DNA of 11,976 nucleotides from an uncultured Deinococcales bacterium (lineage in GTDB: Bacteria > Deinococcota > Deinococci > Deinococcales > JAAFIG01), in assembly GCA_964244895.1 (NCBI GenBank), contig CAXTKV010000166.1:1-11976 (forward strand), in the 5' to 3' direction. The translations under genes were made by a program, and so were the position numbers. Under the pieces are notes generated by a model. The model did no database searches and was not told the DNA's origin. It saw nothing but the letters and a program-made list of their open reading frames with translations. This document shows, piece by piece, positions 254 through 11,975 of this stretch (the stretch's first letter is position 1; each line of letters opens with the position of its first letter).

Positions 254-778
254 TCATTTTTTGCGCCGCCACAATTCCCACGTGACCGGGCCAGCCTCCC
301 GGTCGCTCATCGCGCGACCCGTCAGTTTGAGCGCCAGCTTGATCTGACCGACGTGGTAACCCTCGTGCCAGAGCATGTGTTGCAGGAGCAGGATCGGGTG
401 GTCGTAGTCGTAGTAGACGCCTTTCACGTCCCAGCCTTCTTCGACGTAGCGTTTCACCGCGTCCCGCAGCGCCTTCGCGCTGTCGTTCAACATCGCGGCG
501 ATGCGGTCTACATCGCGTTCGTCCACCCACTCTTCGTCGTCCGGCAAGGTGAATTCGGGGTGGGCTTTGGCGAATTCCTGGGCGTTTTCCGCGACGATGG
601 ACAGCCGCACGTAACGGATGTGCATGAACAGTTCCGCGATGGACGGGCCGCCCTCCATCGCCCTGGCTTCCAGACCGCCTTCCGGCAGGGCGCGCAGCAG
701 GCTGACGACGATGGCGTTGTTCCGATCCCAGGAGTCCAGCACGGCCTCGAGCAGGCGTTGGTCGGGCGCATCCGACAT
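254..778 (-). CDS. DinB/YfiT-like superfamily protein
   Basis: 174 aa with the metal-binding His pattern (SIAELFMHI ... QHMLWHEGYHVGQI). GGAGGT RBS just upstream of ATG. Confidence 0.88.
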   Translation of the reverse strand: MSDAPDQRLLEAVLDSWDRNNAIVVSLLRALPEGGLEARAMEGGPSIAELFMHIRYVRLSIVAENAQEFAKAHPEFTLPDDEEWVDERDVDRIAAMLNDSAKALRDAVKRYVEEGWDVKGVYYDYDHPILLLQHMLWHEGYHVGQIKLALKLTGRAMSDREAGPVTWELWRRKK

Positions 779-3254: not shown

Positions 3255-3314
3255 GAGAACACCGCCCAGCACGACAGTCTCGAAGCTCGAGAATCAGCGT
3301 GCTGGACGGTGTTT
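3255..3314. repeat. REP-like inverted doublet, copy 3
   Basis: AACACCGCCCAGCACG (3258-3273) and CGTGCTGGACGGTGTT (3298-3313). Confidence 0.8.
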
Positions 3315-3328
3315 GTGTTGATCCGTTT

Positions 3329-3544
3329 TTAGCGCTCGAGCCCGTAGCGCGCGAGGTTCGTGATCGCCACGGCCAGCACGTACCCAACGATGATGAGGCA
3401 GGCCCAGGCGCGGAAGCTTCCGGCGGCGCTGAGGGCTCTGACGGCGCTCTGTGCGATGCTGCGAACCCGAGAAAGATCGAGGCCGCGACGGGTTTGCGTT
3501 CTGGGTTGGCGCAGGGCGCGCGGGTCGTGTTCTGTGACTAACAT
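3329..3544 (-). CDS. Small (71 aa) hypothetical protein with C-terminal transmembrane helix
   Basis: MLVTEHDP...AWACLIIVGYVLAVAITNLARYGLER*. ATG 3544 sits 6 nt downstream of TAAAGT (leaderless geometry). The ORF fills an otherwise empty gap between two REP doublets. Alternative ATG at 3550. Confidence 0.65.
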   Translation of the reverse strand: MLVTEHDPRALRQPRTQTRRGLDLSRVRSIAQSAVRALSAAGSFRAWACLIIVGYVLAVAITNLARYGLER

Positions 3545-3581
3545 AACCATACTTTACGACATGGACATAACGGTTTGTCAA
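3530..3581 (-). promoter_or_regulatory. Promoter with two tandem RDRM (DdrO-box)-like palindromes
   Basis: TTCTGT-GACTA-ACATAA (3530-3546) and TTACGA-CATGG-ACATAA (3554-3570). Minus-strand TTGACA (3581-3576) and TAAAGT (3556-3551) with a 19-nt spacer. Confidence 0.7.
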
Positions 3582-3667
3582 GTTCCGCCGGACACATTCT
3601 CAAACTGGTCGGCGTGCCAATCGGATCGCGGCTTCTCGAGGGGTACAACTCGAGAAGCTGCACCAGG

Positions 3668-3713
3668 GAAACCGTTCTGGACGACGCTCTAAAACGCCGT
3701 CCAGAACGGTCTA
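3668..3713. repeat. REP-like inverted doublet, copy 4 (opposite unit order)
   Basis: ACCGTTCTGGACG (3671-3683) and CGTCCAGAACGGT (3698-3710) form a perfect 13-bp inverted repeat. Confidence 0.8.
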
Positions 3714-3722
3714 TTCCGCACC

Positions 3723-4340
3723 TCAACCCTCGTTTTTCTCGAGCCAATCGGCGTAAGAGACGCGCTTGATCTCGAAAGCCTCGCGGGTTTTGGTGTAGCC
3801 GCCCAGACCACCCATGCGCCCGATCAACCGCAGTTCTTTCGTGTGGACGTAAAACTTTTCCGCGTCCACGAATTCGTCCGCGATGTGAATCTCGAGAACT
3901 TCACCGATGACCACACGGTTGTTGCCGATTTCCAGCACGGTGTTGACCCGGCATTCCAGGTTGACCGGCGATTCCGCGATGCGCGGCGGTTTGATCTTGA
4001 CGGACGGCAGCGTGGTCAAACCCGCGTGCTCGAGTTCGCTGATGCCCTCCGGGAAATCCGTGGCGGTCACGTTCATGGCCTCCGCGATGCTTTCACTGAC
4101 CAGGTTGACCACGAATTCCTGCGTCAACCGCAGGTTGCGCTGCGTGTGCTTGGTCACGCCGGGACTGAAAGCCACGATCGGCGGGTCACTGCCCATCGCG
4201 TTGAAAAACGAGAACGGCGCGGCGTTGACGCGCCCCTCCAGATCGAGCGTCGTGACGAGCGCGATCGGTCGCGGTACGACCACGCCCGTCAAAAGTTTGT
4301 AGCGTTCGCGCGGCTCGAGCCTGTGCATGTCGAAGTTCAT
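3723..4340 (-). CDS. Flavin reductase (DIM6/NTAB) family protein
   Basis: RERYKLLTGVVVPRPIALVTT...NAAPFSFFN...PPRIAESPVNLEC...IGRMGG..Y family motifs. Start MNFDM (4340) avoids overlap with the upstream gene. Confidence 0.9.
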   Translation of the reverse strand: MNFDMHRLEPRERYKLLTGVVVPRPIALVTTLDLEGRVNAAPFSFFNAMGSDPPIVAFSPGVTKHTQRNLRLTQEFVVNLVSESIAEAMNVTATDFPEGISELEHAGLTTLPSVKIKPPRIAESPVNLECRVNTVLEIGNNRVVIGEVLEIHIADEFVDAEKFYVHTKELRLIGRMGGLGGYTKTREAFEIKRVSYADWLEKNEG

Positions 4341-7921: not shown

Positions 7922-8356
7922 ATGAACGGTTGCCTTCGCGCGTTGGTGATTCTCGGCGTCGTGGTCGCCCTCGGGATCGGTGCGCTGGTGTTCGTGGGCG
8001 TGAATTTCTGGAATCGCGTCGGCCCGAGCGTCCAGGGTTTCCTGAAACTCCCGCAGCAGATCGAACGCGTCGTGCCCGACCTCAAGGGCATCGGCGTGAA
8101 CTTCCGCGACCAGAACGGTCGGCGCACGCTGCACCTGGACGCCCGCGTGCCTTTCGACCCCACCAGCGCGCCGCGCGCCCCGCAGATCGCCAATCAGATC
8201 CTGGGCATCGTGCAATCGCAGATGCCAAAGGATTTGCCCGTGCAGCGCCTCGAGGTGCGCCTGTACCGCGAGCAGAACGGCGGGCGTCAGGAAAAAGTCT
8301 TCAGCTTCGACCTGACCAACCCGAAACCCGCTCCCGTGCCGCGCGGCTCGAGCTAA
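7922..8356 (+). CDS. Hypothetical protein, N-terminal membrane anchor plus ~90-aa unknown domain
   Basis: 144 aa with TM at residues ~7-27. TACGAT (7909-7914) lies 7 nt before ATG. Paralogous to the C-terminus of 8943..10208. Confidence 0.85.
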   Translation: MNGCLRALVILGVVVALGIGALVFVGVNFWNRVGPSVQGFLKLPQQIERVVPDLKGIGVNFRDQNGRRTLHLDARVPFDPTSAPRAPQIANQILGIVQSQMPKDLPVQRLEVRLYREQNGGRQEKVFSFDLTNPKPAPVPRGSS

Positions 8357-8942: not shown

Positions 8943-10208
8943 ATGGCCGTCCTTCGCCCAGACCCCCCCACGATTCGCGCCAGCATCGGCGCGGTCATCG
9001 GCGCATCGAGAGCTCTGGCACGCAACATCCCGGACGGTGCGATCACCTGGCTGGGCGCGCTCGGGCTGGCCGCCGCGCTCGAAATCTGGGCGCGAACCCA
9101 ACCCGAAGCCGCGACCGACCTCGGGCTTCGTTGGGGGTACGCGCACCTGGCGCTGGGCATGCTGTTCGCCACGCTGGTCGTGCGATCGCTCACGGACGCA
9201 CGGGTGCTGCCCCGAAGCTTGCGACGCCGACTGACCATCCTGAGCGCCTTGCTCTGCGCCGCGTGCGCCGCCTACACCCTGCCTGGCCTCGAGATCGCAA
9301 AGATCGACCTGCCCGCAGAGGCCAGCCTCGCGATCGGCCTGATCGTGCTTTTCGGATTGCTGCCCACCGCGACTGCCGCTCACGTCCGTCAGTCTGCACC
9401 GCGTCGGATCGCCCAGAATCTTGCCGTCCTGGTCGCCCTGTTCACCACCATGCTAGCGCTGATCCTGCTGGGCAACGTATCGGGATTGAGTGGTGCGGGA
9501 CTGGTGTGCGCCAGCCTGATCTCGTTCAGCCAACTGGTGTGGCCTTCAGGAAACGCTGCGCGCCAGAGACGAAAAAACTTGTCCGGCTGGGTGGGAAACG
9601 CCATCTACGCCAACCGCGAAGAGAACCCCAAATCCACGCGCACCCAGACCGACCACCCGACTGAAGCAGAAGCGACCAGACCGGAAGCCTCGACCGTAGA
9701 ATCTCAGCCAGAACCACAGGTGGTCAAACGCATGCGATTCCAAGCGCCGAATTTCACCCCGATCATCGATTACGAACTCGACCCGGACGACGGTCCACCC
9801 TCGAAGGAGACCGAAGAAACCCAACGCGCCTACCAACGCCCCCAAGGCACGCTGGAAGCATCGATCATCAGCAGCCTGGAATTGCTGGACCGGCTCGAGC
9901 AGTACGCCGGTGACGCCGACAAACTCAGCGTGCTGTACCGCCGCAGCGAAGGCGAGCGCGTGCTGCGGTGCAGCCTGGCCGTCAACTTTGACCCCTTAGA
10001 GGACGGCTGGACGGCCCTGGAAGTCGCCAACAAGATCCTCGAGATCGTCCGGGAGTTCACGCCGCGCGGCCTGAAGCTCATTCGGCTCGAGATTCGCATC
10101 TATCAGGAACGTTTCCGCCAGGGCGAACAGCGCCGATTCGAGCGCACCTTCAACTTCGATTTGACCAACCTGGAACCGCCCCCGCTCGAGTCACCCGACC
10201 AGCTTTAA
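8943..10208 (+). CDS. Hypothetical multi-pass membrane protein with low-complexity linker and C-terminal unknown domain
   Basis: 421 aa with ~6 TM in residues 30-200, an acidic/Pro-rich linker, and a C-terminal domain homologous to 7922..8356. Start codon uncertain (no RBS). Confidence 0.75.
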   Translation: MAVLRPDPPTIRASIGAVIGASRALARNIPDGAITWLGALGLAAALEIWARTQPEAATDLGLRWGYAHLALGMLFATLVVRSLTDARVLPRSLRRRLTILSALLCAACAAYTLPGLEIAKIDLPAEASLAIGLIVLFGLLPTATAAHVRQSAPRRIAQNLAVLVALFTTMLALILLGNVSGLSGAGLVCASLISFSQLVWPSGNAARQRRKNLSGWVGNAIYANREENPKSTRTQTDHPTEAEATRPEASTVESQPEPQVVKRMRFQAPNFTPIIDYELDPDDGPPSKETEETQRAYQRPQGTLEASIISSLELLDRLEQYAGDADKLSVLYRRSEGERVLRCSLAVNFDPLEDGWTALEVANKILEIVREFTPRGLKLIRLEIRIYQERFRQGEQRRFERTFNFDLTNLEPPPLESPDQL

Positions 10209-10295: not shown

Positions 10296-10376
10296 CGCCG
10301 CAGTGCCTTTAGCGCGTCTACGCCGCAGTGCACTCAACGCGTCTGTGCCGCAGTGCGCTCAACGCGTCTCCGCCGC
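10296..10376. repeat. 25-bp tandem repeat x3 spanning the helicase stop codon
   Basis: CGCCGCAGTGCCTTTAGCGCGTCTA / CGCCGCAGTGCACTCAACGCGTCTG / TGCCGCAGTGCGCTCAACGCGTCTC / CGCCGC. Confidence 0.9.
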
Positions 10377-11975
10377 GATCGCCTCCAGAAACCAGCGCGG
10401 CAGACGCTCGCGCTGCCGTCCGACCCAACTGCTAAAAAGCGCGTCCAGCACGTAGGTCACGGCGTGATCGTCGGCGGAACGCACCGCCCGACCGTAAGCC
10501 TGCACCAACCGCAAGGCCGTGCGCCACTCGTACCAGGCCGGGTCTATGGCGCGACGGGCCGCGACTTGCGGATCGCCCAGGTACGGGTACGGCACCTTGA
10601 CGATCACCTGCCAGCGCGCCAGATCGCCGTGCAGGTCGATGCCTTCGGTCATGGATGGCGTCAGCAGCACGCTGCCGCCGTGCCTGGATTTCGTAGGGCT
10701 CGAGAGGTGGCGCGAGAGCGCGTCCTCTCGGTCTTTTGGCCCCGTGTGGTACACCAATCGCGGCTGGTGGCGCGCGGGCAGATTCTCGATCAGGTAGCGC
10801 AGAATCCGGTACGAGTGCGCGTGAATCACGCCCTTGGTTTCGTGCTTGTCGAGCAATTTTGAAATCACTTCGGTCAGCCTGGGCAATTCCGCGTTCAGCG
10901 TGTCGCGGTTCAAACGCGCCACCGCCAGCGGGTAGATGGGTCGGTTGCGCGCTGGGAAGCTCGAGGGCACGCGGATGAACGCCGCGTCCTCTATCGGTAC
11001 GCCGAGCGCCCGCAAAAACGTCTCCGGATCGAGGATCGTGGCGGATAAAAACAGCACCCGGTGCGCGTGCTTGAAGATGTAGTCCTGGACGAAACTCGCC
11101 ACGCGCACGGGACGGAACTTCCACCACCACGCCCCGGAATCCTTCGCGCCGTCGAAGCCCAGCTCCATCTGCCCGCCTTCCTCGCAGACCCAGGCGTTCT
11201 CGTCGTCCTGCAAAAGGTGCAACCTCGAGACCAGACTCTCGAGTTCGGACTTGTGCATCGCCACGTCCGGCGGCACGTCCTGGAGCTTGGTTATTTCTTC
11301 CTCGAGCTTCACCAGCGACCGCACGATCTGCGGAATCAACTGCGTAGCGAAATGAATGCGCTCTTCCAAATCATCAGTGCGCGGAAATTCCAGGTGGATG
11401 CCCGCGCGCGCCAGCGTGGTTCTGGACAGACTCACCTCGACGAAACGCATCAGCATCTCTTCGGTATTGTGCGCCTCGTCCAGCACCAACAGATCGCGCT
11501 TGCCAAACGCACCCTGGTAGTTGGTTTCCGCCAGAAAATACGGGTAGTTGAGCGTCGCGACCTGCGCGTGAACCGCGTCATCCTTGGCGATCAGGTACGT
11601 GCAATCCTCGCAGATCGGGTACTTGCGGCCCGCCATGCACGGCGCAGCGCCCGCGTGCGTGTCCTGCACCAGACACGGGTAATTGGAACGGCCCTTGACC
11701 ACCGACAAATCCGGGAAATCCCGCACGTACTGATCCTGCAAGAGCTTCTGCGCCGTCAGGATGTACGCGCTTTTGGATTCGCGCGCCAGCGTGACCGCGA
11801 TGCCCGACTTGCCCGCGCCCGTCGGAGCCTCGATCACCACGAAGCGCTTGCCCTTCGCGAAGGCTTTGCGCGCCGCCTCGAGCGCCTCGCGTTGACCTGG
11901 GCGGTAACTGGCGTATGGAAAGTGTTCTGAAACTGTTGGCTCGAGCGGTTCCGGGTTCTCGAGCGCGGGTTCCAT
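10359..11975 (-). CDS. ATP-dependent DNA helicase, DinG/YoaA/XPD (Rad3-like) family with Fe-S cluster
   Basis: Q motif YRPGQ, Walker A APTGAGKS, KGRSNYPC..APC..PICEDC (4 Cys), DEAH, SAT, EGIDL, QAYGRAVRSADD. The start is at the window edge and may extend further. Confidence 0.92.
   Translation of the reverse strand: MEPALENPEPLEPTVSEHFPYASYRPGQREALEAARKAFAKGKRFVVIEAPTGAGKSGIAVTLARESKSAYILTAQKLLQDQYVRDFPDLSVVKGRSNYPCLVQDTHAGAAPCMAGRKYPICEDCTYLIAKDDAVHAQVATLNYPYFLAETNYQGAFGKRDLLVLDEAHNTEEMLMRFVEVSLSRTTLARAGIHLEFPRTDDLEERIHFATQLIPQIVRSLVKLEEEITKLQDVPPDVAMHKSELESLVSRLHLLQDDENAWVCEEGGQMELGFDGAKDSGAWWWKFRPVRVASFVQDYIFKHAHRVLFLSATILDPETFLRALGVPIEDAAFIRVPSSFPARNRPIYPLAVARLNRDTLNAELPRLTEVISKLLDKHETKGVIHAHSYRILRYLIENLPARHQPRLVYHTGPKDREDALSRHLSSPTKSRHGGSVLLTPSMTEGIDLHGDLARWQVIVKVPYPYLGDPQVAARRAIDPAWYEWRTALRLVQAYGRAVRSADDHAVTYVLDALFSSWVGRQRERLPRWFLEAIAAETR

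Follow-up and report, generated by a model that had tools for sequence, protein, structure and literature searches.

A lineage-specific family of small proteins with a predicted membrane helix, very likely part of the IrrE/DdrO regulon in uncultured Deinococcales and a possible brake on division

An uncultured family of the Deinococcales carries a family of small proteins that, judged from its sequences, is a new and lineage-specific membrane protein family and very likely belongs to the IrrE/DdrO regulon. The member described here, a 71-aa ORF under two RDRM boxes, lies in a window of 11,976 nucleotides, the whole stretch of DNA analysed, which is contig C166 of a host genome of 5.12 Mb (62.7% GC, 91% complete). 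We have little doubt that this is a real gene regulated by DdrO, and a scheme of DdrO repression, IrrE-dependent induction and a leaderless mRNA, carried over from Deinococcus biology, seems very probable. The family may perhaps work like SidA, SosA and YneA, and it stands outside every named family; a role as a brake on division or wall synthesis, for which both the target and the arrest of division are drawn by analogy, is a possibility that falls somewhat short of even. The fullest version of this proposal, which we put forward tentatively and which may well be wrong, is that the IrrE/DdrO system, which works independently of RecA and LexA, would here have its first membrane protein dedicated to a division checkpoint. 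Such a protein would restrain the septal wall synthase in the manner of SidA and SosA but would have arisen independently in Deinococcota; its first five codons would serve at the same time as operator, and its activity would lie in a 30-residue helix that closes with the invariant N-x3-Y-G-x2-R.

Both palindromes of the original prediction were recovered (Table 1). The first, TTCTGTGACTAACATAA at 3530-3546, matches TTMYGY-N5-RCRKAA at 12 of 12 positions and the second, TTACGACATGGACATAA at 3554-3570, at 11 of 12, with their starts 24 nt apart. On the minus strand TTGACA (3581-3576) is followed after 19 nt by TAAAGT (3556-3551), and after a further 6 nt by the ATG at 3544; the promoter was missed by a consensus scan because that scan takes spacers of 16-18 nt, and spacers in relatives are 17-19 nt. 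Box 2 had been placed in the -35/-10 spacer, a position that stands with the refinement that the box also covers the first three bases of the putative -10. Because the -10 lies at -12 to -7 from the ATG, a leaderless mRNA is implied, and we infer both the transcription start and the leaderless status from the sequence. A further in-frame ATG at 3550 is upstream of the putative start site and is missing in genera g3 and g4.

Table 1. Features of the 71-aa ORF, its promoter and its flanks, in coordinates of the window.
Feature	Position	Strand	Details
71-aa coding sequence	3329..3544	-	ATG 3544 to stop at 3329; GC3 0.78
Conserved C-terminal motif N-x3-[YF]-G-x2-R-stop	3332..3358	-	61/61 members
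Predicted single transmembrane helix, residues 47-65	3350..3406	-	Mean hydropathy 2.13; N-in/C-out by charge
Predicted amphipathic helix, residues 24-41	3422..3475	-	AlphaFold2; hydrophobic moment 1.5; follows predicted disordered basic linker
RDRM box 1	3530..3546	.	Covers start codon; codes M-L-V-T-E; 20.9 bits, rank 11; 18/18 loci
Putative -10 hexamer TAAAGT	3551..3556	-	At -12..-7 from ATG 3544; start site inferred
RDRM box 2	3554..3570	.	Promoter spacer and -10 overlap; 11/12; 15.4 bits, rank 28
Putative -35 hexamer TTGACA	3576..3581	-	TTGAC in 11/11 aligned promoters; -35 to -38 in 18/18 loci
Strong hairpin	3258..3313	.	Between ORF and convergent MerR-family gene; z = -4.2 and -3.8 (two strands); terminator-like site
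Hairpin	3671..3710	-	After upstream flavin-reductase-like gene; region 3600-3725 folds with z = -6.9

The neighbours of the ORF, a MerR-family gene and a flavin-reductase-like gene, are unrelated to it. Of the flanking hairpins, the one on the MerR side is a likely terminator and the one after the flavin-reductase-like gene likely insulates the promoter; with hairpins on both flanks and unrelated neighbours, the ORF is likely to be a single-gene unit. Short inverted repeats containing CTCGAG are present at window positions 3279-3301 and 3631-3660 and recur between genes, here and in relatives, in the manner of REP-type elements. The window also holds a DinB-family gene (254-778, minus strand), a DinG-like helicase gene (10359-11975, minus strand) and two unannotated plus-strand ORFs (7922-8356 and 8943-10208) with similar C-terminal stretches of about 70-100 aa that end in F.FDLTN.

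To score the boxes we used a matrix made from 11 of the 22 exact consensus matches in the whole 5.12-Mb genome, picked by eye before recognisable genes and with the sites of the window excluded. In a scan of 5,119,686 genomic positions box 1 scores 20.9 bits and ranks 11th, and box 2 scores 15.4 bits and ranks 28th. Sites of at least 18 bits number 19 in the real sequence and 2.0 in shuffled sequence, and box 1 is strong as a site; at 14 bits or more there are 45 real and 23 shuffled sites, so that box 2 on its own is weak and needs context. Together the boxes are the top-scoring of the four pairs that lie within 60 nt of one another genome-wide, another of which is just upstream of ddrO. By chance, a further site with at most one mismatch would be expected within 40 nt of any given one with a probability of about 0.004.

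The identification of the boxes as RDRM sites is supported by the rest of the genome, which encodes both ddrO and irrE and carries the motif before repair genes. Both proteins were found by matches to solved structures: DdrO is a 129-aa protein on contig C77 (E 2.6e-66 to 6JQ1), and IrrE is encoded about 640 bp from it (E 1.8e-63 to 8SLM, 1.4e-59 to 3DTE). The motif precedes ruvB, cinA, uvrB, uvrC, gyrA and gyrB, among others; ten of the 11 genes behind the training sites belong to the RuvB, CinA, UvrC, RecQ, PcrA/UvrD-type, GyrB, UvrB, DnaE, GyrA or SRAP families, and no family was assigned to the remaining one. This boxed set agrees largely with the Deinococcus regulon lists in the available portions of PMC5552922 and PMC8533742. 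DdrO was found in 17 of the 18 other genomes of the host family (f1), in all 36 from the family of D. radiodurans (f3), whose DdrO is about 80% identical, and in 14 of 23, 13 of 36 and 0 of 37 genomes of families f4, f5 and f2 respectively, so that its occurrence beyond f1 and f3 is patchy.

Several other features of the host regulon can be recorded. At C77:1653-4037 ddrO and irrE share a strand and are separated by a single gene, and an ORF divergent to ddrO, with no Pfam match, shares two boxes with it (C77:2059, 2107); it holds the ddrQ position, a name given by position only, which is also the typical place of division inhibitors beside a repressor gene. Three of the four top-scoring boxes (C126:6795, C208:1820, C270:4443) precede unrecognised ORFs of 155 aa, 100 aa and at least 191 aa, the last of which begins MYITE within its box. 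Boxes at C2:29007 and C37:22645 precede similar-looking helical ORFs of 146 and 158 aa, an 18.9-bit box at C289:3055 precedes an 82-aa ORF with two CXXC pairs that is DdrS-like by description, and another candidate for a small membrane protein is a hydrophobic ORF of 42 aa with a 16-bit box (C159:1710) 110 nt ahead of it. At C41:4887-4929 and in two related genomes (G012:C16:8145-8185 and G008:C82:18474-18514) tandem boxes spaced by 24-26 nt have no long ORF behind them, and in the two relatives the box codes for a five-codon MLITE or MFITE followed by a stop; such pairs are possibly the source of a damage-induced RNA, or a relic. Boxes also precede a DnaE-family gene (C328:1491), a SRAP gene (C139:1275) and, at C90:16955, an ORF that we take to be a probable radical-SAM protein, and the divergent ORF at C139 presumably resembles a Y-family polymerase accessory protein; these boxes suggest a mutagenesis arm under DdrO control. 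The host genome has three LexA-like genes (C122, C45 and C276). In genus g22 a box lies over the ATG of cinA (three genomes) or of another gene (one genome).

The promoter and the protein are both conserved among relatives. We collected 18 loci with promoter DNA by protein search, and all of them keep TTGAC at -35 to -38 and the start-codon box at -2; the spacer box matches at no fewer than 11 of 12 positions in 14, the four g3-like loci having a degenerate copy. Further upstream, a weaker third box is present at -58 in all seven g5 loci and at -77 in all four g3-like loci. The -10 element is TAnnnT at -12 or -13 in 11 loci and CAAAAT in seven, and DNA conservation decays upstream of about -45. 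The boxes, the -35 and the ORF travel jointly across four genera, and since the neighbouring genes differ between genera, promoter, boxes and ORF appear to move as one unit; the ORF is conserved together with its boxes. Over residues 41-71 the 17 full coding sequences give pN/pS values of 0.09 in g4, 0.21 in the g3-like group and 0.21 in g5, as against 0.18, 0.89 and 0.62 respectively over the linker, all being uncorrected pairwise counts among related sequences that are not independent. Synonymous changes in the C-terminal half are 5- to 11-fold above non-synonymous ones, and on these counts that half is under purifying selection.

The N-terminal residues are conserved in a different manner. 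Codons T4 and E5 are ACA GAA in all 17 full genes, while G42, L50, N63, G68 and R71 each use two to five codons in the same genes, and ACA accounts for 4% of the Thr codons in the host genome; the invariant MLxTE is therefore best seen as the operator read as protein. With the linker likewise best taken as a poorly constrained spacer, the function should sit in residues 42-71. These observations also bear on the possibility that the boxes are not DdrO operators of the 71-aa ORF, or that the ORF is untranslated. This would be consistent with the score of box 2, which is in a range where shuffled sites are about half as many as real ones, and with the atypical length of the promoter spacer, but we consider it very unlikely indeed in view of the joint movement of boxes, -35 and ORF in four genera, the excess of synonymous change in the C-terminal half, and the use of so rare a Thr codon by every gene.

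A profile search of the phylum finds the family in 16 of 19 genomes of the host family, the host included, with one copy each, one of them cut by a contig end; this distribution and the protein-level selection (pN/pS 0.09-0.21 in the C-terminal half) show the ORF to be conserved. A repeated search of the three remaining genomes, G001 (74% complete), G005 (87%) and G018 (57%), did not recover a true match, and three further weak matches were due to chance. No true match was found in the other 345 genomes searched in the phylum, including 125 of f3, 128 of f2, 68 of f5 and one of f6. Five weak matches in f4 (E 0.002-0.009) were rejected; the three inspected consist of a boxless membrane helix, which from its motifs we take to be like that of cytochrome c oxidase subunit II. 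Protein searches gave 55 and 15 matches, the 15 coming from HMMER against 1.84 billion representatives and all family-like. The family alignment holds 61 sequences of 67-96 aa, clearly extended upstream starts having been excluded, and a fused longer form was absent among 7,995 candidates, which is a weak test. The restriction of the gene to a single uncultured family, with no occurrence found among the 125 f3 genomes, means that it does not belong to the IrrE/DdrO regulon in general. The tandem-box pattern has 40 matches in 364 genomes, and at 26 tandem-box loci (25 of the 28 places outside this gene) the ORF listing has no comparable small membrane ORF starting in a box.

The gene is not beside ddrO, which in the host is on another contig (C77 versus C166) and on the closed chromosome of G006 is about 1 Mb away (2.69 Mb for the family gene versus 3.73 Mb). 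In genus g5 the gene is followed on its own strand by an mltG-like gene in four genomes and by a member of the rodA/ftsW family in one. We take this arrangement as a weak hint in favour of a brake on wall synthesis. It goes back to no more than two independent events, a hairpin-like sequence separates the neighbouring genes, and at the remaining loci the gene has unrelated genes beside it. Where the g5 locus extends far enough, the mltG-like gene is followed by a SWIM-domain gene resembling ddrT, and in g3 the family gene is about 0.8 kb from a divergent gyrB.

The original description of the ORF, with a basic N-terminal side and one hydrophobic C-terminal segment, is borne out: the net charge ahead of the hydrophobic segment (residues 47-65) is +6 in the 71-aa protein, and in 61 of 61 members the best 19-residue hydropathy is 1.75-2.53, the preceding charge is +2 to +9 and the tail is 5-10 residues. 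With one hydrophobic segment, a positive N side and a short tail, the protein is predicted to be tail-anchored with an N-in/C-out orientation. AlphaFold2 gives a disordered region at residues 1-23 and helices at 24-41 and 44-68 (mean pLDDT 72, pTM 0.42), and the hydrophobic moment of the first helix is variable in the family (mean 1.14, minimum 0.19). ElaB and YqjD tether ribosomes or the nucleoid to the membrane, and a similar tether acting through the basic N-terminal region would suit the N-side charge and C-terminal anchor common to all 61 members; however, no other part of the protein is as poorly conserved as the basic region, where pN/pS reaches 0.89, and none of the 61 members matches such a Pfam family, and we regard this as remote. 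Only slightly less improbable is a protective role, in which a tail-anchored disordered protein stabilises the membrane or limits aggregation in desiccation or oxidative stress. The linker is variable in length and weakly constrained, and such a role was proposed for D. deserti Deide_15148, which has the same layout (PMC4007540), but that N63, G68 and the C-terminal R71 never vary points to specific recognition rather than a generic anchor, and stacked operators would be superfluous for a harmless product, though ddrA shows that they can occur.

Conservation is concentrated in and around the membrane helix, with G42 in 59 of 61 members, W47 in 60, N63, G68 and the terminal R71 in all, and Y or F at position 67 in all. 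N63, Y67, G59 and P/V56 lie on one helix face, with N63 near the outer end, and the helix is not amphipathic (moment 0.34-0.51). Residues of this kind usually mark helix-helix packing, and the pattern suggests that the outer end of the helix carries a surface for binding a specific partner. Such a face and the invariant C-terminus would suit any specific partner, and the protein could be a damage-induced modulator, without a part in any checkpoint, of some other membrane protein: a protease, transporter or efflux pump, for example, or an enzyme of the Rod system or a lytic one such as MltG. The mltG-like gene that follows in four genomes would fit this, as would the indirect remodelling of the D. 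radiodurans envelope on loss of DdrO (PMC12934235), but across genera no conserved partner gene adjoins and nothing singles out a target; we think a modulator of this kind unlikely, though a serious contender.

Searches of Pfam, NCBIfam and PHROGs with the 61 members gave only weak matches to the hydrophobic segment (best E 0.0047 for BatA, 0.029 for NapE and 0.0049 for one PHROG), nothing significant was found in the PDB by sequence or with Foldseek, and the ESM Atlas gave no usable match for two members. Mimicry of SecE was rejected, with an hhalign probability of 0.35% and a secE gene of its own in the host genome. Identity with DdrQ, DdrR or DdrS was also set aside: another ORF is divergent to ddrO, and the protein has neither a DinB fold nor two CXXC pairs, PMC5552922 describing DdrR as a DinB-family protein and DdrS as having two CXXC pairs. 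We found no published paper on the family, and supplementary RDR tables could bear on its novelty.

In the mechanism that we propose, DdrO dimers on the spacer/-10 box and on the start box would block initiation during undamaged growth. After DNA damage IrrE would cleave DdrO, and the leaderless transcript would be translated directly; leaderless mRNAs make up 60% in D. deserti and the position of the RDRM relative to the start varies (PMC4007540). The protein would then insert in the inner membrane, where its conserved helix would likely contact a partner; most likely it would hold up the synthesis of septum or cell wall, through FtsW or another SEDS or late-divisome protein, until repair is done. 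We chose a brake on septal or wall synthesis because small damage-induced inhibitors of this type most often act in this way. Those known are 29-165 aa long, lineage-restricted and mutually non-homologous (PMC13689564), and the membrane helix of YneA binds FtsW, with models suggesting the same for SidA, SosA and ChiZ (PMC13396833). SosA has conserved essential residues just outside its helix (10.1101/364299), and conserved residues lie just outside the membrane helix in this family also.

Other observations count against the brake. The membrane helix of YneA alone fails to block division (PMC13396833) and SosA requires its extracellular part (10.1101/364299), so that an outer tail of 5-10 residues is shorter than these precedents would call for. 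The host genome encodes a kinase with PQQ-type repeats that is RqkA-like, and RqkA is reported to arrest FtsZ in D. radiodurans (PMC9832530). Neutral in this respect is a complex prediction that paired FtsW (residues 1-366 in a 29-row alignment) and the family (residues 24-71 in 59 rows): it scored 0.00 in two runs, but with the fold of the partner uncertain and the controls not folded this value speaks neither for nor against the pairing. Many division inhibitors adjoin the repressor gene divergently, according to PMC13689564, and this family differs in that its gene is not adjacent to ddrO and another ORF occupies that spot. The location of the family gene on closed chromosome and contigs was given above. 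Divergent placement beside the repressor gene is common among inhibitors but is not known to be universal.

The double operator had been taken to point to a toxic product, and this is not borne out. Neither ddrA nor cinA is known as toxic, yet the RDRMs of ddrA are paired in each of the species surveyed in PMC5552922 and stand 21 nt apart in D. radiodurans (PMC8533742, Table 2), and in other genomes a box covers the start codon of cinA, so that tight repression is no sign of toxicity. A membrane toxin that lowers membrane potential and leads to slow growth, dormancy or death after damage nevertheless has some appeal, the protein being small and damage-regulated, with one hydrophobic helix that has a buried polar residue and with two or three operators. 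TisB and DinQ, the models for such a toxin, are tightly repressed, damage-induced membrane toxins under 30 aa with long leaders and antisense RNAs. Here the predicted leaderless mRNA would offer no 5' leader to an antitoxin RNA, upstream DNA conservation fades at about -45, Rfam gave no match at its thresholds, the gene is single copy in each genome and the membrane helix lacks amphipathic character, and we judge a toxin of this type improbable.

The gene, kept in most genomes of its family, provides a short candidate effector for stopping division during repair in IrrE/DdrO bacteria. SulA was not found in the 91%-complete host genome; D. radiodurans also is without SulA, and a kinase route has been proposed for its division stop (PMC9832530). 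The promoter is suited to an assay in D. radiodurans, given the similarity of the DdrO proteins, although the host family remains uncultured and the searches did not recover the gene in the family of D. radiodurans. Should the protein block septation, membrane division inhibitors would have arisen convergently once more, this time under the control of a different damage sensor; should it not, the IrrE/DdrO regulon, known mostly for proteins that act on DNA, would still gain a new membrane protein.

With the IrrE/DdrO regulon of Deinococcus the gene shares the 17-bp RDRM, the DdrO and IrrE orthologues and the core targets, and the ddrA-type tandem boxes and a box over the putative start site are alike in both; it differs in that the host belongs to an uncultured sister family and the gene was not found in the f3 genomes, and none of the RDR members in the lists seen in PMC5552922 and PMC8533742 is described as a small membrane protein. 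Deide_15148 of D. deserti is likewise small and leaderless, with a cytoplasmic part of low complexity ahead of a C-terminal helix, but it is Gly/Ser/Arg/His-rich and is not described as RDRM-controlled in the part of PMC4007540 available, and no homologue of this family was detected in f3. In contrast to TisB and DinQ, the proteins are of greater length and predicted to be leaderless, and no conserved flanking RNA was found with Rfam or in the promoter alignment, though an antisense RNA from within the gene is conceivable. From SidA, DidA, SosA, YneA and ChiZ the family differs in sequence (0 of 61 members match, as far as Pfam and NCBIfam hold models of these inhibitors), in its control, by DdrO/IrrE rather than LexA/RecA or DriD, and in having a C-terminal membrane helix with a short tail where the named inhibitors have a LysM domain or a 40-residue outer part. 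It resembles them in being small and lineage-restricted, in having one membrane helix, here predicted, whose outer end is conserved, and in answering to a master damage regulator.
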